32,000 bases of DNA. It comes from Promethearchaeota archaeon (GTDB lineage Archaea; Asgardarchaeota; Lokiarchaeia; Sigyniarchaeales; SOKP01). Made by a program: the position numbers and the translations under genes. The stretch is from contig JAUWGH010000005.1 of assembly GCA_030606485.1 (NCBI GenBank), forward strand, positions 270,001 to 302,000. The letters are read 5' to 3'. Within the stretch, counting starts at the first letter, position 1. Every line of letters begins with the position of its first letter. Positions 7,294 to 29,572 of the stretch are shown here, one piece after another. The notes under the pieces are model-generated. The model did not search any database and had not been told where the DNA came from. It saw nothing but the letters and a program-made list of their open reading frames with translations.

Positions 7294-8178
7294 GTGATTA
7301 TAATGGTTGAAAAAATCAAATCCGGCTTACTTAATCTGGGATTAAAATTCATCTCTATTGAAGAGAAATTATTCCGAATGTTTTTGGAGACTTCACCAAC
7401 TAAGGTTAATGAAATTGTTATTTTACCCGCAGTAAAGCTTGTAATGGAAAAAGTCGTTAAAAGATTAAAAAATAAAATAAAACATGGAAATGTCTATAAT
7501 GGTAAATTAGGTGACATAGAAGTCAGTGTAATTCAGAGTTTAGTTGGCACACCCTATATTGCTGAAAAATTGGAGTGTTTAAAATTTACAAAATGTAAGG
7601 TGATTATTCGAACAGATTTTTGTGGTGGGTTAAATATTCCTAGCCGATCAATTGAGCCGGGAGAAATAATAATTCCTGAGAGTGCGTTCTGCGGAGATGG
7701 TGTGTCCCCCTATTATATTCTGAAATATTATGAAGAACTTAAGAATTTAGAATTTATAAAAAATCCTATTGAAGGAATAAGTAAAATTAAAGCAGGAAAC
7801 GAGAGGATATATAAAATATCTCCATCAAATGAGCTGAATGAAATTTTATTAAATACTGCTAGAAGTTTATATTCAAATAAGATATTAACCGGACCAATCT
7901 GGACTACCGGTGCTTTATTTTTGGAAACGGAAGATGTTGCAAAATCCTGGATAAAAGAGGGGATAATTGGAGTTGATATGGAAAGCTCTTTATTGTTTTT
8001 ACTGGGTCAATTATTTAATATTAAAACGGCTTCTGTAATCTCAGTCTCAGATGTAGTAGGACATGAAAAATATGATATATTTAAATCAAATTATATACAT
8101 CCAGAAATATTCACTGGAATCGATAGGACTATTGAGATTGTAATTAATTCTTTAAAAAAAATCAAAAATATTCTTTAA
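7294..8178 (+). CDS. Nucleoside phosphorylase-like protein (PNP/UDP family 1); start may be ATG 7303
   Basis: IIRTDFCGGL, GEIIIPESAFCGDGVS, GPIWTTGALFLET, GVDMESSLLF, SVISVSD follow the PNP/UDP motif order. Confidence 0.8.
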   Translation: MIIMVEKIKSGLLNLGLKFISIEEKLFRMFLETSPTKVNEIVILPAVKLVMEKVVKRLKNKIKHGNVYNGKLGDIEVSVIQSLVGTPYIAEKLECLKFTKCKVIIRTDFCGGLNIPSRSIEPGEIIIPESAFCGDGVSPYYILKYYEELKNLEFIKNPIEGISKIKAGNERIYKISPSNELNEILLNTARSLYSNKILTGPIWTTGALFLETEDVAKSWIKEGIIGVDMESSLLFLLGQLFNIKTASVISVSDVVGHEKYDIFKSNYIHPEIFTGIDRTIEIVINSLKKIKNIL

Positions 8179-9071: not shown

Positions 9072-10811
9072 CTAAGTTGCTTCCTCTAAAAATCTCAAGT
9101 ATGTCTCTTGTTCGCTAACGGGCATATATCTCAACTGTTCAATGATTTGTTGTAGATATTTAGGATTTAAATTTAACTTTTTAACTCGTAAAATCAGTTT
9201 CTCTGATAATTCTCGATTAAGTTCAAATAGTTCATTAAGATATTTTTCCTGTTCCTCTTCTGTTAAATACACAAATTCTTTCAAAATTTCTTTTTTATCT
9301 TTCTCTGGAATATTCAAATCAAGTATTTTCCTTCGAATTTTTTCTGATAAAACATTAAAGATCTTTAAAAAATATCTTTCAACAATCTCTCTATCAGATT
9401 CCTTAGAAATAGGTAATAATGAATCGTGTAATTTTAATTTTAATGGTTGTTTTTTGAATTTTTTCTCGATTTTCCCATCCATCTTCCTTTGTTTCTTGGC
9501 TTCCTTTTCTAATTGCTTTTCTGATCTTTTTTCAATAGGTTTCTTTACTGTCTCAAAGAAAGGAATTTCCTCTAATCTTTTATCCTTTTTTTGAGCTTCA
9601 CTTTCAATATCCTTTTTCTCTTCTATTGGAAAAGGTTTTAAAGGTGGTTCTTTTTTAGCGGCTAAAGGAACCGAGATATATTTTTGATCTTTTCCTTTTT
9701 CATCGCTTTTTATTTCATAAGGTGATTTTGGAGGTTTTTGCCGATAAGTTGATGGTTGTATAGGCATTAATTCTTCGGAAATTGATAATTTTCGAGAAGG
9801 ATCATAAAAAATTCTATCTGGTCGTCCTTTTTGAGCTAAAATTATTATCGTAATTGCTTTTAGCAAAATAAAAACTCCAGAGGCATAAAAAAAGCATCCA
9901 ATAATCCCTGCAACGAGAAATGACCCGGCGTCATTTTCCTCAAAAACTTTCTTGGATGATATTGTAGGAGATCTCTTCTTGTCAATAGAAACACCTATTA
10001 TTGATAATATCAACGAAACAAAACCAAAAATTAAAAGACTAAAAAAACGGAAATTGGAAGGAATTAAAATACTTGAAACAGCCATATATGCAAAAGATGC
10101 AAATCCTAAAATTATAATTGATGCACCCGCATAACTTGATATTGAATTTAACGAGTCTTTTATTAACAATCCCCAGTCATAGCCTTGAAATTCTTGATTC
10201 TTCTCATCTTGTGAAATGTAAATTATTAATAGAATACCTTTTATTAACAATACAACTCCTGCACCATATACTATGCATCCTAAAATTCCCAAAGCAATAG
10301 CTGAAACACTAACTTTATTATATTCTCCCTTCTTAATTAAAGGTGCTAGATAATTTTTATCAAAATGCGCAATTCTAAGCCCAAAAATAAAGAGTGCTAC
10401 TGATTCAAAAATTATAATTAAAAATTGAAGATCATTTCCAATCCAATTTAATTGAAATATTCTTAGTAAAGAAAGTATAGAAACAATGATTAAGATAATG
10501 TAAGATAATTTATTGATATCTTGAATTACATTATTAATATTAACCATTCCCCGTTGTGAGATCTTTCGTTCTTTTGGTTTCCGAGGGACTGGCTCTTTTA
10601 TTTCTTTAAGCTCCTTTTTTTCTTTAACCTTTAAATCTTTTTCTTTTAATTCACGGAATTTAACTCCCTCTAAAAGAAACTTGTATCCACAATTTTCACA
10701 AAAAATTTGGATTCCTTTCTCGATTCTTTTAACTAATTCTTTGGGAAATTGATGGCCACATTCCCGACAAAAGTATTTTGAACTTTTAACATTTTTTTGT
10801 TCATCATTCAT
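9072..10811 (-). CDS. Membrane protein: N-terminal zinc ribbon, duplicated TM module, charged linker, tandem C-terminal helical repeats
   Basis: CRECG...CENCG; about 8 hydrophobic segments; repeated GI.GC..Y..GV..L.K.I; repeated LSEK...Y....EQE.YL. Confidence 0.8.
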   Translation of the reverse strand: MNDEQKNVKSSKYFCRECGHQFPKELVKRIEKGIQIFCENCGYKFLLEGVKFRELKEKDLKVKEKKELKEIKEPVPRKPKERKISQRGMVNINNVIQDINKLSYIILIIVSILSLLRIFQLNWIGNDLQFLIIIFESVALFIFGLRIAHFDKNYLAPLIKKGEYNKVSVSAIALGILGCIVYGAGVVLLIKGILLIIYISQDEKNQEFQGYDWGLLIKDSLNSISSYAGASIIILGFASFAYMAVSSILIPSNFRFFSLLIFGFVSLILSIIGVSIDKKRSPTISSKKVFEENDAGSFLVAGIIGCFFYASGVFILLKAITIIILAQKGRPDRIFYDPSRKLSISEELMPIQPSTYRQKPPKSPYEIKSDEKGKDQKYISVPLAAKKEPPLKPFPIEEKKDIESEAQKKDKRLEEIPFFETVKKPIEKRSEKQLEKEAKKQRKMDGKIEKKFKKQPLKLKLHDSLLPISKESDREIVERYFLKIFNVLSEKIRRKILDLNIPEKDKKEILKEFVYLTEEEQEKYLNELFELNRELSEKLILRVKKLNLNPKYLQQIIEQLRYMPVSEQETYLRFLEEAT

Positions 10812-13384: not shown

Positions 13385-16300
13385 ATGTTCCGCGTTCTTG
13401 TCCTAGGTAAACCAGAAAGTTCAATACCATATATAATGAATACGGGTGTCGAAGACGGAGAAGACCAGGAAGATATTTATGAGTGTTATAAAGAAATTAA
13501 AGTTTTTGATAATATATGTAATTTAGAAATTGATGTTGTTGCAAAACTTACAGCGGATTTTGATGAAATTATTCCTAATGTTGATGGAATAATTTATTTT
13601 CTTAACCCGATGGAAAAAAGGGAGTGGGATTTATTTGAACTTTTATCAGAAATTATTTCAGATGTAAGAAGAGGCATCCCCATAATTATTTTTTTTAATA
13701 GTCCTGGTCGAATTATATCAATCCCTTCTAATATCTTGTTAGAAGGAGTTTGGAAAAATTATCCCACGTATGAAAGTTTTATTAATTTACCCCCAAATCA
13801 ATTTTACAAGGTGCTTAGTACACTTACAGAATCAATGATTACAAGTAAAATACCAATCAATGTGGAAAATGCTTGGATGCGGCTTTCTATTTTTATATCT
13901 CAAGCAAATACTTTTTATCAAGAAGGTAAATATTATGAATCTGCAAGAGCTACAGAGTGTGCATCCAGAGTTGCAAATATATATAATATGGATGATTTCT
14001 TTATATACGGGGAGCAAGCATCTTTCTTATATTCAAAAGCATATAGATATTTAGAGGCGTCAGATGTTCTACAAGAGATTGATAAAGAGAAAAATCTCTT
14101 ATTTAAAAGATATTACGTTGATAATATGATTGCATATGGAAATCGACTTTTTAATAAAAATAATTTCGATGAAGCTGCAAAACAATATGAAACTGCTGGA
14201 AATTGGGCTTCTCTAGAATTAGAGGATAAAGAAATTATTCAACAAGCGTATAAATATGCCATTCATTCATGGATTTCAGCAACGAAAGTCGAAAATGCCT
14301 TTATTATTTGCCAAAAAATGAATAGGATAGATAAAAAAGATATATTGCATGAAATAACTGATAAAATTAATGCGTCTATAGACTATTTAATCTCGGTAAA
14401 TAAGTTAATTACTGCAAGAGAACAATTATACTTATCAACAAATATGTATCAAAAAGAAGGGTTGTTCGAAGATCTTAAGAAAATTGCAAAAAAACTTGCA
14501 GAAGTATTAATCCTAATCTTTAAAGATAAAATTAAAAAAAATGATATTTATAGTGCTAAAGAGACATATGATGAGATTGTGAATATTTGGAATACATTTA
14601 TTGTTGAAAGAGTTAATTTAGATAATCAATTAGAAAAAATAATACGTTCATTTGCAGAAGTTCTTAATTTCAATATGGTTAGTCTTTTAATTAATGAATT
14701 AAATTCTTTAGATTTGAAGAAAAAATTGACGGAATTCGTTTCTGAAGTTGAAGATAGTGATAGAGCACGGAAAAAAAAGGAACAAGAAGAATTTATTGAA
14801 CATGGAGTTGAAATCCTAAAGGAATATATTAAAGCAGAAAAAAATATCTTTTTAAATACTAGTAAAGAAGCAATTGATTTAGCAAATCATCATGTTTCTA
14901 AAGGAAAAATAATCCAAGGAGCTAGTATATTAATAGAGCAATCTCAATTGTTAAAGCATCTTGGAGAAGATGATTTATCTGATGATGTTAATATGCAAGC
15001 TTTAAATATTTTAATTGAGGGTAATTTTTTACCCGAATTTATTTATCATTCTAAGTTTTTAAAAAGAATCACAAAGAAAAGATATTTCCAAGGAAAATTA
15101 CTTCAAATTATCAATTCAATAGAGTCAATTTATAATAAGGACGGATATTCAAAAATTGAGAATTATATTGATAAATTACTAAGAATATATAGGTCTCTAA
15201 TGATTTATGAGGGTTCAACAAAATTTTCTGAATTTTGTATCGAATTAATAAAAAAATACGCATTAAAAATAATTGAAAATAACGAAAACATAAAAGGCAT
15301 AAAATCATCGCTTGCTCTAATCCAACAGGCATTATATATCTCATCATCATATTTGGATAATAAAATAATAAATTTTGACGAGATATATAAAAAAATAGCT
15401 GAAACTTATATTCTTTTAGAAGATTTAAGTCTTGCAAATACTTACAATCAAAGAATTGAGAATAAAAGATATTCAAAAATCATTAGCAAAAAAATCCATA
15501 AACTAGAATCAAAAAGAAGTGCATTAAAAGCTGAAAAAGCTGAAAAAGCAGTTAAAGGAGAGCTCTTAAAAGAAAAATTATCAATATTAAAACAAAAAGC
15601 TAAAGAAGCTTTAAGTGAACTTGAGGGGCAATTCAAATCGAGAAAAGGATTAAAAAGAACATATTTTCAAACACCTCTTATGTTACTTAATAAGAGAGAA
15701 TATGAAGATTCAATTGCTGCTTATAAAGATGTTGCTATTAGATTAACGAAAATTAACCAATATAATTTAAGTGCTATATCCATCGCAGTTGCATGTTTAA
15801 TTTTATTAAAAGAAAATCAATTTGAAAAAATTCCAATTTTTATAAATTCTATTAGAAAAGAATTGAAAGACTATGCAAAAATACTATTCGAAACATTTCC
15901 TGTGAAAATTATTGAATATATTATAGAAATGAGGAAATATGAAGATGAAAAAAGAGTTAAAGAAGCTATTGGTTTCATGAAAACTCTCCCACTCTTCGAA
16001 ATAGAAAAATTAGTATTAAGTTTATATCTAGGAGAAGATATTGATATAGCAGCTCCAGAAATGAAAGTAGAAAGAAAAATAATAGAAATTCCTGAGGGAA
16101 AAATTAGACAACCTTCTATTCAAGAGGGAAAAGAGATAAAAGCTGGTATTATACGTAAAGAAAAAGCAGAAATAGTCAAAAAGAAGATTCTATTAGAACA
16201 AAATTTAGCAAAGTTAAAACAAAAACAAATAGATTTAAGAAGAACCGTAAAAGAAGTCCTTAAAAAAAGAAGTGCTTTAAGAAGAAGATACTATAATGAG

Positions 16301-16660
16301 ATCTTAGATTTATTAAATAAAAACGATTTTAGAGAAGCGGCAAACAAGTATCTCCACGTTGCTACAATACTGATTAAACGAAAAGATTTTGAAAATGCAA
16401 GTTTTATTATACTCTTATGGGGACTATGCTTATTTAAAACAGACCAATCTCTTCAATCAATCAAAACAAAATTGGATGAAATTCTTGATACATTAGGAAT
16501 TTCGAAAGAGTTATTAAAAGATACATTCTATAATCTAATGCTATCTTTTTTAATTGAAGCAAATTTAGCAGGAGAAAATGAGTTATATGAATTGGGTAAA
16601 AAAATATTGAGTAGAGATGTCCTACCTCTATTTGATGAGGAAATTATTCTCATTTCTTAG
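13385..16660 (+). CDS. Large protein: degenerate small-GTPase-like N-terminal domain plus TPR/SNAP-like helical solenoid with duplicated C-terminal domain
   Basis: 1091 aa. The N-terminus follows G-domain strand order (RVLVLG, NLEID, VDGIIYFLN, IPIIIFFN) without intact G motifs. TPR-like helices such as YGNRLFNKNNFDEAAKQYETA. Confidence 0.75.
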   Translation: MFRVLVLGKPESSIPYIMNTGVEDGEDQEDIYECYKEIKVFDNICNLEIDVVAKLTADFDEIIPNVDGIIYFLNPMEKREWDLFELLSEIISDVRRGIPIIIFFNSPGRIISIPSNILLEGVWKNYPTYESFINLPPNQFYKVLSTLTESMITSKIPINVENAWMRLSIFISQANTFYQEGKYYESARATECASRVANIYNMDDFFIYGEQASFLYSKAYRYLEASDVLQEIDKEKNLLFKRYYVDNMIAYGNRLFNKNNFDEAAKQYETAGNWASLELEDKEIIQQAYKYAIHSWISATKVENAFIICQKMNRIDKKDILHEITDKINASIDYLISVNKLITAREQLYLSTNMYQKEGLFEDLKKIAKKLAEVLILIFKDKIKKNDIYSAKETYDEIVNIWNTFIVERVNLDNQLEKIIRSFAEVLNFNMVSLLINELNSLDLKKKLTEFVSEVEDSDRARKKKEQEEFIEHGVEILKEYIKAEKNIFLNTSKEAIDLANHHVSKGKIIQGASILIEQSQLLKHLGEDDLSDDVNMQALNILIEGNFLPEFIYHSKFLKRITKKRYFQGKLLQIINSIESIYNKDGYSKIENYIDKLLRIYRSLMIYEGSTKFSEFCIELIKKYALKIIENNENIKGIKSSLALIQQALYISSSYLDNKIINFDEIYKKIAETYILLEDLSLANTYNQRIENKRYSKIISKKIHKLESKRSALKAEKAEKAVKGELLKEKLSILKQKAKEALSELEGQFKSRKGLKRTYFQTPLMLLNKREYEDSIAAYKDVAIRLTKINQYNLSAISIAVACLILLKENQFEKIPIFINSIRKELKDYAKILFETFPVKIIEYIIEMRKYEDEKRVKEAIGFMKTLPLFEIEKLVLSLYLGEDIDIAAPEMKVERKIIEIPEGKIRQPSIQEGKEIKAGIIRKEKAEIVKKKILLEQNLAKLKQKQIDLRRTVKEVLKKRSALRRRYYNEILDLLNKNDFREAANKYLHVATILIKRKDFENASFIILLWGLCLFKTDQSLQSIKTKLDEILDTLGISKELLKDTFYNLMLSFLIEANLAGENELYELGKKILSRDVLPLFDEEIILIS

Positions 16661-17944: not shown

Positions 17945-19183
17945 TTGTATATTATGAGTAAAGTGTCCAAAGAGTCTATTGCACCATTTTTAAAATATTT
18001 TGATAAAAAATTTCTTAATCTCAAAGAAATTAAAACAATTGGGGATTTAGCAAAATTACCAATATTTGCGTATAAATTTTTCACTAAAAATGATACAAAA
18101 ATCATTTCAAAACTATTTGACATTAATGTTATTGAAGATTTAAGTAAATTAGATAAAGAAAAACCATTTGACCAATTCTTTTCTCTTGATGCCACCGAAG
18201 ATCCAATTAAACAAGCTAAAATCGTTGAAAAAATGAGAAAACAAATTGATATACTTACTGCAAAAATCCCTAACCTTGATATAAAATTAAAGAAAGGGAT
18301 AATAATAAGTGATGTTATTGTTCGAGTAGCGAAAAAGAAAGAACCGATTAAGAAGAAAGAAACTAAAATTATTTGCGTGGGACTAGAAAATGCAGGTAAG
18401 ACGGCTATATTGAGTAGATTTGGAGGACGTTTAGGAATCCAAGAATTAAGTAAATTAAAACCTACAAAAAAAGTGAAGAGAAGAGTAGTAGAGACGAAAG
18501 ATCTCACCCTTCTCATATGGGATTTCGGAGGCCAGGAAATATATCGAAAGATGTATTTAAAAGAACCCGAGAAATATTTTTTCCAAACACAACTTGTATT
18601 ATATGTGATAGATGTACAAGACCCGGATAAATTTGACGAATCTTTTGAATATTTCTCCCAAATTTTAGAAATATTTAAGATTTTTGAGGAAAAACCGTAT
18701 TTTTTGATTTTCATTCATAAAAGCGACCCGGATTTACGCGAAACTCCTGAATTTCAATTAAATGTTGGTATAGCCAAGGTAGGGATAAATGATCTATTTA
18801 AAGAGCGATATATGGAGTATGAAGTTTTTACAAGTTCAATTTACGATCTTATTAGTTCAGAACCAAAATTTGCAAGATTTCTCAAAGACGTACTAAGAGA
18901 CCAACAATCTTTAACAAATCCAACCTTAGAAAAGGTAGAAGGTCTTGGGAAAATACTGGACAGCACTCTAACCGCAGTTATTCGGCTCTCTGAAAATGTA
19001 ATGGTTGAATTTGATGGAATATATAAGAGATTTGAAACTCTAGAAAATCAATTCAAGGCGGGTTTGTCAGCTCCACCACCAGAACAACCCAAAGCCACCG
19101 AAACTGATTCCCAAAGTACTCGAACGACAGTATTAAATGAATTAAAGGAATTATTTCAAAAAAGAAAGAAAGTAAATTATTAA
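17945..19183 (+). CDS. Asgard-type Rag/Arf-like small GTPase with N-terminal helical extension and C-terminal coiled/Pro-rich tail; likely start ATG 17954
   Basis: G1 GLENAGKT, G2 KPT, G3 WDFGGQ, G4 HKSD, G5 TSSIYD. Confidence 0.88.
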   Translation: MYIMSKVSKESIAPFLKYFDKKFLNLKEIKTIGDLAKLPIFAYKFFTKNDTKIISKLFDINVIEDLSKLDKEKPFDQFFSLDATEDPIKQAKIVEKMRKQIDILTAKIPNLDIKLKKGIIISDVIVRVAKKKEPIKKKETKIICVGLENAGKTAILSRFGGRLGIQELSKLKPTKKVKRRVVETKDLTLLIWDFGGQEIYRKMYLKEPEKYFFQTQLVLYVIDVQDPDKFDESFEYFSQILEIFKIFEEKPYFLIFIHKSDPDLRETPEFQLNVGIAKVGINDLFKERYMEYEVFTSSIYDLISSEPKFARFLKDVLRDQQSLTNPTLEKVEGLGKILDSTLTAVIRLSENVMVEFDGIYKRFETLENQFKAGLSAPPPEQPKATETDSQSTRTTVLNELKELFQKRKKVNY

Positions 19184-20726: not shown

Positions 20727-21266
20727 TTATTTATAAAAAATTATTTCTTCTTCACAAACGTCCTTTTCAACATTATTATCTAAAAAATTAATTTCTACGC
20801 GTTTAATCGTTTCACCAAGCATTTCTTTCAAAGCCTTTTCAAAATATCCTTTATTTACTCTGCAAAAGGCTTTCCCGGGCTTTAATCTCTTTCGTATTTT
20901 ATAGGAATCTCGAAGGAAGCATTTATTTTCGATAATAAACCTAATTTTTTCCTCATCTTCTTCTATATCTTTGATTTGAACAGAATAGAATTGTTTCAAT
21001 TCTCCAAGTAGAAGTTCAAAGGATTCCAGTATACCAAATACTTCCTTGTTATATTTCTCTTTTAATCTTTTTGCAATTGTCAATCCTGGAACTGTTCCGA
21101 CTTGGTATAATAAACTAAGAAGAGCGTTGCGCCCGAATACATCATACATTTTAAAAATTAAGGATTCAGTAATAATTTCATATCCTCTTAAAACGTTTAA
21201 TTTTACTCCATTGTTTCTAATTTTTTCATTAGTTTTTTCAATTTCAAATTTAGAAATTAAATTCAA
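20727..21266 (-). CDS. V4R (4-vinyl reductase)/Bet3-like domain protein
   Basis: LLYQVG..G..IA helix, FIIENKCFLR, FCRVNKGYFEKAL...LG, DVCEEEI: three-Cys V4R pattern. Confidence 0.65.
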   Translation of the reverse strand: MNLISKFEIEKTNEKIRNNGVKLNVLRGYEIITESLIFKMYDVFGRNALLSLLYQVGTVPGLTIAKRLKEKYNKEVFGILESFELLLGELKQFYSVQIKDIEEDEEKIRFIIENKCFLRDSYKIRKRLKPGKAFCRVNKGYFEKALKEMLGETIKRVEINFLDNNVEKDVCEEEIIFYK

Positions 21267-21396: not shown

Positions 21397-22233
21397 TTAG
21401 AGCTTTTTATTAATAAATATTTCGTTCAATGTATTGATTACAATATCTGGAGTACTCAGTTCGCCGCTAATGTTTTTCAACATTTCTTCGTTAGTCACTC
21501 CAGTAAGGACTAAAATCGTTTTTAACTGTGCTCGATTACCAGCAACAATATCCGTATTTAATCTATCACCTACAAATACTGCTTTATCCGGAGACGTATC
21601 ATACTTCTCTAATATCAACTCAATTCCCGTAATCTGGGGTTTTCCAAAGATATCTAAAGGCTTATGACCTGTCGCGATCTCAACTGCCTTAACCATAACT
21701 CCAGCTCCAGGTAAGATTCCCTGTTTTGTTGGAAGTGTAGCATCTGAATTGGTTGCATAAAATTTTGCTCCGTAATTCAATATACATTTTTGAGCAATAC
21801 TCACTTTTTCATAAGTTAAATGTCTATCTAAACCAACAACTACAAAATCAATCTCATCTGAGAGAGAATTATCAGTAAAAACATTATGTCCTTGAGCTTC
21901 TAACTCTAGTTTAAGCCCAATTTCACCTACAATGAAAATATTTGAATTAGGTTTTATTTGAGACAATTTTTGAGCAGTAATATAAGCACTTGTATAAATA
22001 TCTTCTCTCATGGTTTGAATTCCAAAGTTTTTAAGTTTTTTAACATACATATCCCGTGTGGCTGTGGAATTATTTGTATTAAAAACTACATCAATACCTT
22101 TATTACGTAGAATCTTTATGATTAAATTTGAATGGTTTATCAAGACATCTCCTCGATAAATGACTCCATCTAAATCAAAAATAAATAAAGCAATATCATT
22201 TAATTCTTCAATAATATCTAAATCTTCAAACAT
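21397..22233 (-). CDS. HAD-superfamily subfamily IIA hydrolase (NagD-like phosphatase)
   Basis: FIFDLDGVIYRG, FNTNNS, GKP, FVGDRLNTDI, LVLTGV. ATG 22233 is preferred over 22266 because it overlaps the upstream stop (TAATG). Confidence 0.9.
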   Translation of the reverse strand: MFEDLDIIEELNDIALFIFDLDGVIYRGDVLINHSNLIIKILRNKGIDVVFNTNNSTATRDMYVKKLKNFGIQTMREDIYTSAYITAQKLSQIKPNSNIFIVGEIGLKLELEAQGHNVFTDNSLSDEIDFVVVGLDRHLTYEKVSIAQKCILNYGAKFYATNSDATLPTKQGILPGAGVMVKAVEIATGHKPLDIFGKPQITGIELILEKYDTSPDKAVFVGDRLNTDIVAGNRAQLKTILVLTGVTNEEMLKNISGELSTPDIVINTLNEIFINKKL

Positions 22234-23330
22234 TAAGCCCACTCCGGGTAAAACATTGCATACCACTCATTAAATTGCCCAAAAATATCTGCAACAGGTG
22301 CCTGAATTTGATAACCAAAAATTACAACTATTAAGTACAAGATGATGCCAGCTAATAATGGATATAATAAATTATCAGATATCTTTAGTAAATTGGGCGT
22401 AAATATATCAAAAATACCAAAAATTAGAGTTAATATAATTGCTAATTCCCAGCCAACGAAGAAGTAAGAAGTAATAAATGTTATTATGGAGCCACCTATA
22501 GTTCCCTCCCACGATTTTTCAGATTCCCATTTTATCTTATGCTTCCCAATCTTTTTACCAATTATAGAGGCAAATGTATCGCCAAAACATAGGAGACAGA
22601 GTATTCCAAATGTACAAGCAATTGGTAGAAAAATAGATGCCATAAAAATACCAAATATGAAGTAATAATAGTGCCCAACGTTGTGTTGTTCTGAAGGTCT
22701 TAAACTTTTGATAAATAACCGATAAAATGGGATACCCATATTTGGACTTAACCTAAAAAATTCTAAAATTATCGCAAAAGGTACACCAATCATAAAAAAT
22801 ACCATTACACTGATATCAACTAGGGTTGGTGAGATATATTTTGGTGTAATTATGTAATCAAAACCTGGCCAAAATGGATTTATCTTGCAAAATTCTGCAA
22901 AACCTGGAATATTTTCTAATAGAGTAATAGTTATTGTGTTAAAAATGAAAACTTCTAATAAAACCCCTCCAAAAAAGAAGAAATGAAAAAATTTTCTTAT
23001 ATACTCATGTGTATTGGCTCTTAATTCTTGAAATTCCTTGTCGATTTCGATTATTTCTTGTTGTCTATGAAGGAATTTAATATTTATCAAATTATAAAGA
23101 CCAAAATAACCAAGTATTATCCCCATACCTAACCATATTGCAAAACCTGCTGGAAATTTGTAATCTACATTTAAGAAAAAGGTAAAAACTATAATAATAT
23201 AGAGCCCTAATAGTATTCTGCAATAAAATTTTGCGTTTTTATCAAGTGAATATTTTATAATTTTTACTTGAAAGTAAATTAAAAGAGCAATAAATGGTAA
23301 AATTATGAATAAATCAATTAATGAAGCCAT
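22233..23330 (-). CDS. CTP-dependent polyprenol/dolichol/diacylglycerol kinase family membrane protein (SEC59/DGK1/VTE5-like)
   Basis: RKFFH, GDTFASIIGKKIG, KSWEGTIGG, DNLLYP; multiple TM helices. Confidence 0.85.
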   Translation of the reverse strand: MASLIDLFIILPFIALLIYFQVKIIKYSLDKNAKFYCRILLGLYIIIVFTFFLNVDYKFPAGFAIWLGMGIILGYFGLYNLINIKFLHRQQEIIEIDKEFQELRANTHEYIRKFFHFFFFGGVLLEVFIFNTITITLLENIPGFAEFCKINPFWPGFDYIITPKYISPTLVDISVMVFFMIGVPFAIILEFFRLSPNMGIPFYRLFIKSLRPSEQHNVGHYYYFIFGIFMASIFLPIACTFGILCLLCFGDTFASIIGKKIGKHKIKWESEKSWEGTIGGSIITFITSYFFVGWELAIILTLIFGIFDIFTPNLLKISDNLLYPLLAGIILYLIVVIFGYQIQAPVADIFGQFNEWYAMFYPEWA

Positions 23331-24513: not shown

Positions 24514-26166
24514 ATGAGAATAATGAATAAAGATTCCATCAAGTACTGGCTAAGAAAAACATTTATAAGAGACATAAACTTGCCAAAGAATTCATTTATT
24601 TATTTATTGCTCTCTTTTTTTGCAATTATAATAATCACCGAAGTTCTTCTATTCAAATATGTTGTGTTAACTGGGGAGGAATTTGCTTTAGATCTTGAGA
24701 GAATCACTATATTAATTGTGGTCTCTCTCAGTTTTCTTGCTTCTGGTTGTCTTGTTGATAAAATAAAGAATAAAACAAGGTTTTATAATATAACCTTACT
24801 AATTTGCATAATAGGACTGTTCTTAACTAATTTTACTGGAACCATTTTTGATTATATTGGTTTATTTATTATACTTCTTTCATTACCACAACTGGTCGTA
24901 CTATGGTTTACAACATTAATTCATGAAACAAATATCCTTAATAGAGGAAGAATAACGGCTTTCCTGATAATATCATGTTCCATTTTAGGTTTGATTGGAA
25001 TTGCTTTTATATTCTTTGAGTTCCTTTATCCCTATCTTTTCATTGTAGAAACTGTTCTTTTAATCATTATTGCCTTATATTCAAGATCTTATAAGTACAT
25101 AGAAACTGAAGAAAGACTCATATCTGATGAAAAATATATGAAAATTATTTTTGAGAAACATTTTTTTCGATATTCTTCAAGTTTTACTGTATTAAGTTTT
25201 ATTTTAGGTGATTTACTCGCACGTTATGGTTTTGACTTGGATATCATAGCATTCTCAATCACTTCTTTTTTTTATTTACTGGCGGCTGGCTGGTTTTTAG
25301 ATAACATTGGTCGAAAATATGCAATTGTCTTGGGAATTTTAGTTACTTCATTTTTCCTTATATCCTATGGTTCATTTGTTGAAGCAGAAGTAATATATGG
25401 CATACCAAAAAAAATCTATCTCTCAATACATTATGGCTTCTCAATTACACCCCTTTTGCTTGCCATTTTTACAGTGTCCGGAGATTTTTCAACAGAAAGA
25501 GGGAACTTAAAATATAGAGGGCGAATTAATGGACTTCTAATATCTTTAATGTTCATTGGCATTGTCATTGGATATGTTTTTAGTAAATGGATAAATGGAT
25601 TATATAACGCCAACCCCGATTTGAATCTGATAATACCTGAGTTCCCTGACCGGATAAATTCATTTCTTCTAGTTATTCTTCTCGTTTGGATGATGGGAAT
25701 GAAAGAATTCTTAGTCTCTAAAGAACTTCAATGGGCTTCCACTATTAAAAATCTTTATTTATTCAACTATGATGGCATTTGTCTTTATTTTCATAACTTA
25801 GAAAAGGATGAAAAATCCAAAATAAAAATTGAAAAATTTGAATTGGACGAAGATCTAATTTCTGGCGGTCTTACTGGAGTAATCACCATAATCTCTGAAA
25901 TAACAAAGAGTAAAAAACAACTTAGAAAAATTGAAAAAGAAGGAGTAAATCTATTTTTTTCTTATGGAAAATATCATATCGCCGCTTTAATCTCAAGCAT
26001 GGATTTACCAATTTTACTGAAAAAACTCGATGATTTTTCAAAAGAATTTGAACAAAAATTTGAGAAAGAACTGAAAAATTTTAAAGGACATATTAATCCT
26101 TTTAATCCAACTAACTATCTTGTAAAAAAATATTTTGTCCAAAAATATTCAGTTTTTATGGAATAA
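24514..26166 (+). CDS. MFS-like 12-TM membrane protein with C-terminal longin-like domain
   Basis: About 12 TM segments; MFS motif-A-like GCLVDKIKNK and GWFLDNIGRK; soluble C-terminus NLYLFNYDGICLY...DLISGGLTGV..IISEI...FSKEFEQKF. Confidence 0.75.
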   Translation: MRIMNKDSIKYWLRKTFIRDINLPKNSFIYLLLSFFAIIIITEVLLFKYVVLTGEEFALDLERITILIVVSLSFLASGCLVDKIKNKTRFYNITLLICIIGLFLTNFTGTIFDYIGLFIILLSLPQLVVLWFTTLIHETNILNRGRITAFLIISCSILGLIGIAFIFFEFLYPYLFIVETVLLIIIALYSRSYKYIETEERLISDEKYMKIIFEKHFFRYSSSFTVLSFILGDLLARYGFDLDIIAFSITSFFYLLAAGWFLDNIGRKYAIVLGILVTSFFLISYGSFVEAEVIYGIPKKIYLSIHYGFSITPLLLAIFTVSGDFSTERGNLKYRGRINGLLISLMFIGIVIGYVFSKWINGLYNANPDLNLIIPEFPDRINSFLLVILLVWMMGMKEFLVSKELQWASTIKNLYLFNYDGICLYFHNLEKDEKSKIKIEKFELDEDLISGGLTGVITIISEITKSKKQLRKIEKEGVNLFFSYGKYHIAALISSMDLPILLKKLDDFSKEFEQKFEKELKNFKGHINPFNPTNYLVKKYFVQKYSVFME

Positions 26167-27360: not shown

Positions 27361-27969
27361 TCAAGGAGGAATTTGGACTCTACTTTCATAATCTCTTTTG
27401 ATTATGCTTGCAAGTCCAGATCGTAGAGTGAGAATACTCGTATCTATTCTTTCTGAACCTTTAAAAAGTGTAGGACATTGTGGATTATTTTTGTGTTTTT
27501 CCATGTGATTTTCAAAAATAAAATTTTGTTCTCTTTCCGAAGCAAATATAATATCTAAAAGTGCGCTAAGTTCATATTCTTGAATTGTATCTTTAAATAT
27601 ATCCCTTAAAATTTTGTTATACTTGAGAAAGAAGGAAGAAATAAAATAGTCAATTACAAGATTTGAGTTATTACTAGGAAAATGCGTTTTAATTAAATGT
27701 AACATATATCTACTCCTAATCTTTTGCGCTCTAATCCATTCAAGAGCAAAATCTAAAAGAGTTTTATCTTTCTTTAAATATTTACTATAATAATTAATTA
27801 TTTCTACATTACTTTCTTGAGAAGGTCCTACTGATTGATTATCAACTAACCATTGTGCAATTATTTTAACTTTATTTTTTTCTGTACTCTTTAAAATGTT
27901 TTCAGTAACCCGATAATTATCCAAAAATCTCTCTCTGTTAATTTTATAAAGATCATTCATTTTTTCCAT
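27361..27969 (-). CDS. Hypothetical protein
   Basis: 202-aa ORF co-oriented with its neighbours; no recognised motif. Confidence 0.7.
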   Translation of the reverse strand: MEKMNDLYKINRERFLDNYRVTENILKSTEKNKVKIIAQWLVDNQSVGPSQESNVEIINYYSKYLKKDKTLLDFALEWIRAQKIRSRYMLHLIKTHFPSNNSNLVIDYFISSFFLKYNKILRDIFKDTIQEYELSALLDIIFASEREQNFIFENHMEKHKNNPQCPTLFKGSERIDTSILTLRSGLASIIKRDYESRVQIPP

Positions 27970-27982
27970 TTTTTAACTTCTC

Positions 27983-29026
27983 TTAATCTTTTTTATCAAG
28001 AATTTCTTGAATTTTTTCAAGTTCGATGTTTGAAGTCGCTGCCCAATTTTTTAAGATAAAATGTGGATTAATAATTTTTATAAAATTTTCAAAAGAAATA
28101 TTTCCATCCAACATTTTTCTTAAATTCTTCTTATAAAAGGATCTATTTTTTACATGTTCGGATTCATCTTCCATTGGAATTAAAATCACGCCATAACTCT
28201 TTTTAATATCATCATCTTCAGAATATTCTTCTAAATAGAGCACCTTTTTATCTTTTGCCCCTAATTCGATTTGTCTTATGTTGGAATTCACATTTACCAT
28301 CTCAAAAATATCCAGTGTAATGTTTGTCATCTTTTCATAGTATTCTGTTAAAATAACCATAACATAATAGGATGGAATATCTTCCAAATGTTCCCTTCTT
28401 AACGGATCATCTTTACTAAATGTATAAATGTTCAATTCCTTTATACTCAAATCCCGAGATCTCTTTCTTTCTATAACACCAACACAATAATACTTTAATT
28501 GCTCTTTCCAATATATTTTTCGTGTGGAACCAAGAGAATATTCAATTAAATTAATACCACGCTCTAACTCTTTTTCTAATAATTGTTGAACTTTAATTTC
28601 CGAATCTACTACTTGTCGATACATAGATCTTACTTGAAGCAAACTAGGATGAATGTAATTCATCATTTTTTTGTAAATAAAATTAATATCTTCAGTATAG
28701 GGAGAAGCAATAATTGCAAAAAGATTTGTAACCCCTTTATCCGTAATAATTGAGGAGTTAAGGTTAAACATTGATTGAATAATCGAAGTGTCTTCAGTAT
28801 CTTGCGTTTTAAAAGATAGTGTGGATTCTATAAATTTAATTACCCAATTAAAAGATCTTGAATATGCCTTAGTTAAAAAAACTGGTCCAAAAAATTTTAA
28901 TGGAAGTACCATTAACTCTTGTTTTTTTAACTCAGTAAGTTCTTTAGAGAATTTAATATTTTCATAAATTATATTATTCTCATCTGCAAAGAATAAACCG
29001 AGAATGAAATCATTTAATTCGTGCAA
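27983..29026 (-). CDS. Hypothetical alpha/beta protein (possible tandem longin-like domains); TTG start
   Basis: 347-aa ORF with two alternating strand/helix blocks; the fold call is tentative. Confidence 0.65.
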   Translation of the reverse strand: MHELNDFILGLFFADENNIIYENIKFSKELTELKKQELMVLPLKFFGPVFLTKAYSRSFNWVIKFIESTLSFKTQDTEDTSIIQSMFNLNSSIITDKGVTNLFAIIASPYTEDINFIYKKMMNYIHPSLLQVRSMYRQVVDSEIKVQQLLEKELERGINLIEYSLGSTRKIYWKEQLKYYCVGVIERKRSRDLSIKELNIYTFSKDDPLRREHLEDIPSYYVMVILTEYYEKMTNITLDIFEMVNVNSNIRQIELGAKDKKVLYLEEYSEDDDIKKSYGVILIPMEDESEHVKNRSFYKKNLRKMLDGNISFENFIKIINPHFILKNWAATSNIELEKIQEILDKKD

Positions 29027-29206: not shown

Positions 29207-29572
29207 TTAAATTAATAGGGCAATCTTCTGAGCAGATCGTTTACAATCTAACATTATTAGTCCGAGTTTCACATCAACCGTTGTTGAGACCGTTAGAACG
29301 GCGTTTTCCCCACAGTACATAACTAATAAAATGCCATTTGTCCCCCTTACAAGGATATGTTCAAGGATACCCTTGTTTAACTCCATTGCGGCACGCTCGC
29401 CAAGTGAAATAATAGCTGCCGTCATTGCGGCTATGCGTGTTTCATCAATCCCTGCCTCTAAAGCCGAAGCGATTGGAAGTCCCTCCGCACTAACGATAGC
29501 TGCAGCTTTAATCTCAGGAATGGATGAAAGCAATTGTCTCAGAATAGAATCTAATGTTTCGATACTGTCCAT
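29207..29572 (-). CDS. Roadblock/LC7 (MglB-like) domain protein
   Basis: IKAAAIVSAEGLPIAS, DETRIAAMTAAIISLGERAAMEL, ILVRGTNG, AVLTV, KLGLI. Confidence 0.92.
   Translation of the reverse strand: MDSIETLDSILRQLLSSIPEIKAAAIVSAEGLPIASALEAGIDETRIAAMTAAIISLGERAAMELNKGILEHILVRGTNGILLVMYCGENAVLTVSTTVDVKLGLIMLDCKRSAQKIALLI

Follow-up and report, generated by a model that had tools for sequence, protein, structure and literature searches.

A DHA1-like MFS transporter with a C-terminal longin domain in Asgard archaea

We analyzed a stretch of 32,000 nucleotides (hereafter, the window) from a Promethearchaeota archaeon (assembly GCA_030606485.1, contig JAUWGH010000005.1, positions 270,001 to 302,000), in which one gene encodes a 550-aa protein that combines a 12-helix major facilitator superfamily (MFS) transporter with a C-terminal cytoplasmic longin domain. 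An initial annotation of the window had delimited this forward-strand open reading frame (ORF) at 24514-26166 and had read its product as an MFS transporter fused to a longin-like domain; both the ORF list and the translation agree with it. The gene, the two folds, their fusion, its conservation and its distribution are demonstrated below. As to function, we lean toward a transporter that dimerizes via its longin tail and offers a docking or regulatory platform to a soluble partner.

The fusion protein and its two folds

A word-indexed search returned 131 homologs of the fusion protein, nearly all of them 530-560 aa long, with a query coverage of 98-100% and an identity of 51-66%. More than 100 full-length orthologs in this identity range belong to the Asgard family of the window (f1). 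Judged from the family alignments, the tail is conserved at least as much as the whole protein, with mean column identities of 68% and 63%, respectively. Because of the number of full-length orthologs and this conservation of the tail, the fusion is well beyond chance. The named sources of the homologs are Lokiarchaeota/Promethearchaeota-type and other Asgard metagenome-assembled genomes, and the databases label them only as "MFS transporter", "MFS family permease" or "hypothetical protein"; NCBIfam has no family for the whole protein and none for the tail. The initial annotation did not know the fusion as a characterized system, and we likewise found no description of it in the searchable Asgard longin and MFS literature, where a listing among the asCOGs (Liu et al.) is possible. 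DNA of the gene recurs in metagenomes of cold seeps and marine sediments, and an expression look-up, in which reads were not mapped, listed no RNA dataset for it.

By fold and motif tests, the modeled body is an MFS transporter of the DHA1 type. Hydropathy analysis gave twelve hydrophobic segments in a 6+6 pattern, and an AlphaFold2 model of the full-length protein (44 homologs) contained 12 long transmembrane (TM) helices with pLDDT values of 80-97 and placed the central loop, at about residues 191-214, on the cytoplasmic side. When this model was compared with the PDB by Foldseek, the top 50 matches were all MFS proteins (E values of 1.6e-7 to 8e-6, TM-scores by target of 0.53-0.72), led by VMAT2, NorA, 6G9X (an archaeal or bacterial MFS), FucP, YajR and MdfA. 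The two motif A-like strings quoted in the initial annotation, GCLVDKIKNK and GWFLDNIGRK, are located where it had placed them. The TM8-TM9 loop matches motif A fully, with G259, D263, G266, R267 and K268 invariant, and the TM2-TM3 loop matches it in part (G78, D82 and K85). Proton-coupled DHA1 transporters typically carry an acidic residue within the membrane in TM1, and E43, which is nearly invariant in the alignment, is a candidate proton or cation coupling site. Furthermore, the N-terminal helix, the central loop and the TM10-TM11 loop show a conservation that is unusual for MFS proteins. In particular, K10 and F17 are nearly invariant in the N-terminal helix and D20, just beyond it, is invariant, as are Y195, E197, R201, S204, E214, R219 and Y220 of the central loop. 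Loops of an E/D-x5-RGR type follow both TM4 and TM10 and are both nearly invariant; T139, L142, N143, R144 and R146 are the invariant residues of the former.

The tail (residues 396-550), folded alone with 44 homologs, gave a model with a pLDDT of 76.7 and a pTM of 0.75. DSSP assigned to it the elements E16-22, E28-33, H51-69, E77-80, E83-89, E94-99, H104-126 and H136-146 (tail numbering), which is the β-β-α-β-β-β-α-α layout that the initial annotation had proposed. This order, with two C-terminal helices and no N-terminal helix element, is that of longin and not of roadblock domains. The best Foldseek match of the tail was the TRAPP subunit Trs23 (3CUE_A, E = 1.2e-5), followed by TRAPPC1 (2J3T_C, E = 2.7e-5, TM-scores of 0.63/0.69), with TM-scores of 0.6-0.69 across Trs23 and TRAPPC1; AP-2 sigma, MglB, LAMTOR and Mon1-Ccz1 were among the lower matches. 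VIA-align, an aligner independent of Foldseek, aligned 98-130 residues of the tail with Fuzzy (CPLANE; Z score of 11.7), Bet5 (11.2), VAMP7 (11.1), TRAPPC1 (10.9), synbindin (10.7) and Sec22 (10.7), while Asgard roadblocks reached Z scores of 9.3-10.3, within about 1 Z of the longins, with only about 100 residues aligned. At the sequence level, Pfam Sybindin (PF04099) was matched by 38 of 44 tails (best E = 2.6e-5), the window tail scoring 14.4 bits, the sole bit score listed, under the 25-bit cut-off; Fuz_longin_1 (PF19036) was matched weakly by 23 of the 44. A search of PDB sequences with the tail profile again put Trs23 on top (E = 0.017), followed by TRAPPC1 (E = 0.21). On its fold, with which these sub-threshold sequence signals agree, the tail is a longin domain closest to the sybindin/TRAPPC1-C4 type. 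The features of the gene are collected in Table 1.

Table 1. Features of the MFS-longin gene and its recurring neighbor (window coordinates)
Feature	Position	Strand	Basis
Whole gene: 550-aa MFS transporter with C-terminal longin domain	24514..26166	+	ORF list, translation, homologs
Conserved N-terminal cytoplasmic helix, residues 6-17	24529..24564	+	Alignment; helix H6-17 in model
12-helix MFS core, 6+6, DHA1-like, residues 25-401	24586..25716	+	Model helices, Foldseek, Pfam
E43, nearly invariant acidic residue within TM1 (helix H25-51)	24640..24642	+	Alignment, model
Motif A-like TM2-TM3 loop GCLVDKIKNK, residues 78-87, D82 invariant	24745..24774	+	Alignment; between H57-81 and H87-104
TM4-TM5 cytoplasmic loop HETNILNRGR, residues 137-146	24922..24951	+	Alignment
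Central cytoplasmic loop, unusually conserved, residues 191-220	25084..25173	+	Alignment; between H169-190 and H215-238
Motif A, TM8-TM9 loop GWFLDNIGRK (G-x3-D-x2-G-R-K), residues 259-268	25288..25317	+	Alignment
Cytoplasmic loop between TM10 and TM11, GDFSTERGNLKYRGR (residues 323-337), nearly invariant over its whole length	25480..25524	+	Alignment
Longin domain in the cytoplasm, residues 403-550 with the folded core at 411-541, contiguous with TM12	25720..26163	+	Model, Foldseek, VIA-align, profiles
Predicted surface for the pairing of two longins (α1 helix, β3 strand), about residues 449-480	25858..25947 (449-478)	+	Homodimer prediction
Unannotated 178-aa cysteine-rich ORF, candidate non-obligate partner	20727..21266	-	Only recurring neighbor of the fusion gene

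A family of tethered longins and the predicted pairing of the tail

We screened 301 genomes of the phylum for orthologs. Close full-length orthologs (E < 1e-200) were found only in f1, in genera g1, g2, g4 and g5, where they often occur in tandem, and a more divergent full-length subgroup (E about 1e-100) likewise belongs to f1. Five proteins of approximately 525-555 aa, which come from families f2, f4, f7 and f9, bear the same tail; all five matched MFS_1, four reaching the cut-off. Divergent MFS+tail proteins occur in at least four families besides f1. An exhaustive search of 1.84 billion representatives with the tail profile yielded 1056 clusters (at 50% identity) with E ≤ 0.001, of which 411 had E ≤ 1e-10, and among the matches are MFS+tail proteins, dozens of them full-length, with 508-632 aa. 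MFS_1 was matched on its own by 5 of 10 sampled divergent members of 450-700 aa. The profile matches also put the tail on proteins of about 350, 770 and 1550-2638 aa, and the genome of the window carries seven tail-type domains in ORFs of 550, 380, 378, 251, 751, 1461 and 1567 aa. We place the tail in a large, unnamed family of Asgard longin domains that are tethered to the membrane by attachment to very different membrane proteins.

The six other tail carriers of this genome are polytopic proteins of about 250-750 aa and the giant ORFs of 1461 and 1567 aa. In this genome (G000), carriers lie on contig C13 (L002, 1495-2592 and 2604-3455, both on the reverse strand), on C8 (L003, 13-1887, forward strand; also C8:139832-140215) and at C10:909399-909773, C8:354812-355150 and C6:120618-120932. 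A 283-aa gene that adjoins the 365-aa gene (380-aa open frame) in L002 has, by eye only, a TM+tail look.

In a maximum-likelihood tree of 109 tails, the sequences grouped by the attached membrane module (29 label changes versus 53.8 after shuffling), a clustering statistic that is descriptive only because related sequences share labels. The window protein falls into an all-MFS clade of 14 rows with a support of 99/89, and MFS-linked tails form at least three large clades; as the base of the tree is not resolved, one fusion event and several are both possible.

Two copies of the tail are predicted to form a homodimer through the canonical α1/β3 longin interface. Controlled complex prediction gave ipSAE values of 0.63, 0.64 and 0.63, with 0.00 in the controls (n = 3) in which the partner was swapped for an unrelated protein; contacts agreed between runs to at least 97%, and the pLDDT of the partner was at least 81. 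In calibration, 20 of 30 proteins with a solved pair structure attained the mark of the tool, as did 1 of 23 whose solved structure is a single chain. The predicted interface is symmetric, with α1 on α1 and β3 paired with β3 (tail residues 54-85; contacts 61:61 and 78:78). Among the elements of the tail, helix α1 has the highest conservation (0.84), and conservation at the interface is 0.77 versus 0.68 elsewhere in the tail (one-sided p = 0.047). Tandem paralogous pairs of MFS-longin genes are present in several genomes and fit a heterodimeric variant; in the genome of the window the gene is single-copy, so that the tail would pair there with itself or with that of a different tail-bearing protein.

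We thus picture a secondary MFS transporter, DHA1-like and probably proton-coupled, whose last TM helix leads directly into the cytoplasmic longin. Two such molecules most likely associate by their longin tails, via the canonical α1/β3 interface, in which case the transporter would function as a parallel dimer, its longins forming a two-fold platform beneath the membrane; in lineages with tandem paralogs, the pair may be a heterodimer. Together with the conserved cytoplasmic loops of the MFS body, this platform would most likely serve a soluble partner as a surface for docking or regulation. The parts of this picture that we infer are the docking of a partner, proton coupling and any role in signaling.

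Several observations weigh against it. The model of the whole protein shows the tail at low confidence (pLDDT of about 40-60) and not docked on the body, and Pfam MFS_1 (PF07690) was matched with an E value of 1.6e-5 and 24.5 bits, under its cut-off of 33.4 bits (35-58 bits for divergent relatives that carry the same tail). The enrichment of conservation at the interface is weak, and since the predicted dimer has the canonical longin/roadblock geometry, its pass may in part mirror likeness to solved dimers of these domains rather than binding. The fusion is also absent from five genomes of the sister genus g2 that are 92-99% complete (all candidates scored); its patchy occurrence points to an accessory gene rather than core machinery. 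Finally, the analysis of the fusion protein gave no substrate clue, and no partner was linked universally to the fusion gene across the examined loci.

The lack of a universally linked partner would suit an explanation that we regard as unlikely, in which the tail is an intrinsic dimerization or autoregulatory (gating) domain that needs no external partner, like the YAM domain of Escherichia coli YajR. YajR, which is among the structural matches of the body, is a precedent for an MFS transporter with a folded cytoplasmic C-terminal domain; the predicted self-pairing of the tail also agrees with such a role, and the highly conserved cytoplasmic loops of the body could contact the tail. As in VMAT2, NorA, MdfA and YajR (8THR, 9B3K, 6EUQ and 3WDO), the body has 12 helices in a 6+6 arrangement, motif A and an acidic residue in TM1. 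The identity to DHA1-type MFS transporters including YajR is only 11-17%, the central, TM4-TM5 and TM10-TM11 loops are unusually conserved in comparison with them, and the tail is a longin and not a ferredoxin-like YAM domain. Against a gating role, the full-length model contains no confident contact between tail and body. Moreover, the same tail type is found on unrelated membrane proteins, including giant single-pass ones, and a common external function therefore fits better than gating of a single kind of transporter.

Neighboring genes and candidate partners

The initial annotation had proposed a direct coupling of transport or substrate binding to GTPase signaling. In such a transceptor, the longin platform would bind or activate an Arf/Rag/Rab-like GTPase, possibly together with a roadblock protein, and relay the substrate or conformational state of the transporter, by analogy with SLC38A9 and Rag-Ragulator or with TRAPP and Mon1-Ccz1 as guanine nucleotide exchange factors (GEFs). 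The nearest relatives of the tail, Trs23/Bet5, Fuzzy and Mon1-Ccz1, are GEF-type longins, and the predicted dimer has the geometry of GEF platforms. Furthermore, Asgard genomes are rich in longin- and roadblock-fused GTPases (PMC10933270), and the window itself contains genes for an Arf/RagA-like GTPase (17945-19183) and for a roadblock protein (29207-29572). Nevertheless, when the 26 ORFs of the window were compared with seven other long MFS-longin loci, only the fusion gene and the 178-aa ORF recurred, and neither the GTPase gene nor the roadblock gene was retained near the MFS-longin genes there. Eight loci of MFS+tail genes from other assemblies likewise showed no conserved GTPase or roadblock neighbor. 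One of them (L031) has two Arf/Ras-type genes 4-5 kb from its MFS+tail gene, which is unremarkable because Asgard genomes are GTPase-rich; with dozens of such genes per genome, one per 32 kb is expected by chance. A GTPase domain was also absent from ten sampled proteins with this tail type, in which only MFS_1, one CN_hydrolase and one weak winged helix-turn-helix match were detected. Longin domains also work without GTPases, as in SNAREs and the sigma and mu subunits of adaptors, and many have no GTPase role. Thus, of the MFS-longin transceptor, the MFS fold, the longin fold and their fusion stand, whereas the GTPase coupling finds no support in the neighbors (the window and the eight loci) or in the fusions (the ten proteins). 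Given this lack of a GTPase neighbor or fusion, the transceptor stays at the level of hypothesis, and we consider it unlikely.

The GTPase encoded at 17945-19183 (forward strand) is a 412-aa Arf/Gtr1-RagA-like protein with its GTPase domain at about residues 135-301. Its approximately 134 N-terminal and 110 C-terminal residues are unassigned and may be longin or roadblock extensions as in Asgard Rag-like GTPases.

The only recurring neighbor is thus the cysteine-rich 178-aa ORF, which has no Pfam family. Its counterpart in L025 is 59% identical, unannotated and located about 3.9 kb upstream of the fusion gene, and L026 and L028 contain similar counterparts. The gene is effectively single-copy per genome, and its family comprises 222 homologs, all "hypothetical"; only f1 (44 of 68 genomes) and f2 (7 of 7) contain it. 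In 17 genomes of three genera, counted where both genes lie on a long enough contig, it stands head to head with a close fusion gene at a distance of 0.9-6.4 kb, with differing genes between the two, and a divergent MFS+tail gene in L030 has a 38%-identical copy at a distance of 1.8 kb. In f2, the 178-aa gene and the MFS+tail gene are unlinked. Ten genomes have the 178-aa gene without a tail-bearing gene within 7 kb, and five of these ten are without a close fusion gene (all candidates scored), for which reasons we rejected the 178-aa gene as an obligate partner. Because the linkage is seen in only one family and is absent in f2, inherited synteny remains a sufficient explanation.

Could this ORF encode a distant V4R/Bet3 protein that flanks the longin dimer, as TRAPPC3 flanks TRAPPC1/C4? 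Its standing as the sole recurring neighbor, in the 17 genomes and at the one divergent locus, would fit a TRAPP-core-like arrangement. Sub-threshold matches to V4R (PF02830; best E = 0.047) and to ATC_hydrolase (best E = 0.0019) were each obtained for 6 of 26 members, V4R and TRAPP clusters are among the Atlas feature neighbors of the ORF (0.90-0.91), and three invariant Cys and two Gly residues align with Asgard Bet3 in the C-terminal halves in a local profile alignment. On the other hand, the ORF is not among the PF02830 matches of the genome at E ≤ 0.01, a profile search of the PDB with it gave no match, and its identification as Bet3/TRAPPC3 was rejected because comparison with Asgard Bet3 by hhalign was not significant (probability < 1%, E = 0.17-0.23). 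As the 178-aa gene also persists in genomes without the fusion gene and its linkage is limited to one family and not seen in the sister family f2, we judge this arrangement improbable.

The remaining genes of the window include housekeeping genes for a CCA-adding enzyme, EF-2, TFB, an Rpb7-like subunit, peptidases, an SDR protein and a HAD hydrolase. The HAD hydrolase gene (21397-22266, reverse strand) overlaps the end of the upstream gene (22233-23330, reverse strand) by 34 bases, and the two are possibly co-transcribed; the latter encodes a 365-aa polytopic membrane protein with a weak CTP_transf_1 match (E = 0.05). Four ORFs of the window have no Pfam match: 13385-16660 (forward, 1091 aa), 9072-10811 (reverse, 579 aa), 27361-27969 (reverse, 202 aa) and 27983-29026 (reverse, 347 aa). 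The last of these gave only weak Atlas leads of about 0.8, under the recognition mark, one of them a cluster with NPR2 in 19% of its members.

An arsenate-reductase/phosphatase link was suggested by LMWPc (PF01451; low-molecular-weight phosphatase/ArsC-type) genes on both sides of the MFS-longin genes in three assemblies and one short Logan contig. It was rejected as not general: the wider synteny is shared, the LMWPc genes lie on other contigs in the genome of the window and in G128, G285 and G294, and G026 has none. The brackets, which enclose single or tandem MFS-longin genes in one lineage, are at 7396-7878 and 11533-12027 in L025, 7373-7861 and 11588-12088 in L026, and 7401-7865 and 9631-10122 in L028; a macro-domain gene adjoins the cluster in L026. 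Neither the genome of the window nor distant genomes show such brackets. Soluble proteins of about 350 aa are encoded directly after a divergent 610-632-aa MFS+tail gene, on the same strand, in L031 (8830-9891, forward) and L032 (8985-10040, forward). The two are homologs of each other (28% identity, E = 4e-46) on otherwise unrelated contigs, have no Pfam family, and begin with a GP-containing strand that recalls longin heads of the NPRL2/folliculin type. They were rejected as homologs of the tail and have no counterpart in the 347-aa ORF of the window; three homologs are present elsewhere in this genome (C1:175094, C10:184069 and C4:138252). A 508-aa neighbor in L029 was rejected as a second MFS+tail gene.

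Relation to known longin systems and significance

The TRAPP subunits Bet5/TRAPPC1 and Trs23/TRAPPC4 (PF04099; 3CUE, 2J3T, 7B6D and 7E8T) are the best matches of the tail in both sequence and structure and share its fold, and the Bet5-Trs23 pair uses the α1/β3 pairing that is predicted for the tail. However, TRAPP longins are soluble, flanked by Bet3 and part of a Rab GEF, whereas the tail is a covalent part of a transporter. Bet3 (PF04051) was detected in 26 of 26 f9 genomes, but neither in this genome nor in 25 f1 genomes searched. Because it is covalently part of a transporter and no Pfam-level Bet3 partner was found, the tail is not a TRAPP subunit in the defined sense. Many f9 genomes contain two Bet3 paralogs about 2.5-3 kb apart on the same strand (for example, G005:C81:53728-57050, G063:C24:24009-27230, G116:C77:31294-34584 and G075:C1:406334-409643), which suggests a conserved Bet3-pair locus. 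Mon1-Ccz1 and Fuzzy-Inturned (CPLANE; PF19036; 5LDD and 7Q3D) include the top VIA-align match of the tail, Fuzzy, but are soluble heterodimers whose subunits have three longins each, in contrast to the single longin on a membrane protein described here. MglB, Asgard roadblocks and a Lokiarchaeal longin dimer (1J3W, 9JUE, 7F8M and 8YQG) have a related fold and the same dimer geometry (Z scores of 9.1-10.3), although a roadblock has an N-terminal helix and no second C-terminal helix, and its alignments with the tail cover about 100 residues compared with 120-130 for longins.

A longin tethered to a membrane protein is also found in VAMP7, Sec22b and Ykt6. In these longin SNAREs, an N-terminal longin is followed by a SNARE helix and a single C-terminal anchor, whereas in the fusion protein the order is reversed, no SNARE motif is present and the membrane part is a 12-helix transporter. 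VIA-align gave Z scores of 10.3-11.1 for VAMP7, Sec22 and a synaptobrevin-like protein and 7.2-7.3 for Ykt6. The longins of VAMP7 and Sec22, which are among the best structural matches of the tail (Z scores of 10.7-11.1), are read by AP-3, Hrb and Sec23/24, and by analogy the tail might be a sorting tag by which an adaptor- or coat-like factor places or retains membrane proteins in a given membrane region. That one tail type is common to many unrelated membrane proteins would agree with a tag, but no adaptor or coat gene is linked in the eight loci examined, and internal membrane compartments have not been observed in the two cultured Loki-type Asgard archaea (PMC10933270); we hold this explanation to be highly improbable.

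Among transceptors, yeast Snf3 and Rgt2 are MFS glucose sensors whose signaling C-terminal tails are unstructured motifs. SLC38A9 engages Rag-Ragulator; it is not an MFS protein and itself has no longin domain, while Ragulator and the C-terminal domains of Rag proteins are platforms of the roadblock or longin type. What the fusion protein would share with these systems, by analogy, is a transporter fold with a cytoplasmic extension that possibly engages signaling proteins.

Since the names of its carriers read only "MFS transporter" or "hypothetical protein", surveys of eukaryotic signature proteins that rely on annotation cannot see the tail. If the tail is only a dimerization domain, it would be a modest addition to the known accessory domains of MFS transporters. 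A bolder and, in our estimate, rather doubtful idea extends the docking-platform reading: the dimer may be a membrane-anchored platform of the TRAPP/Mon1-Ccz1 type that recruits an Asgard GTPase without a lipid anchor, or the linked, putatively V4R/Bet3-like 178-aa protein, to the working transporter. If true, it would represent a prokaryotic forerunner of both transporter-coupled nutrient sensing and the TRAPP core, and membrane-tethered longins would be an Asgard route for connecting GTPase modules to membranes. Some Asgard Arf-like proteins use an amphipathic helix, and the canonical eukaryotic lipid-anchoring machinery was not found in Asgard archaea (Table 1 of PMC4917890). For the connection of the many eukaryote-type small GTPases and longin/roadblock regulators of Asgard archaea to the membrane, the tethered-longin family provides concrete candidates for membrane-side docking sites. 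Its MFS member is a tractable one: the fold is defined, the short soluble tail lends itself to expression on its own, and the predicted dimer interface is accessible to mutation.

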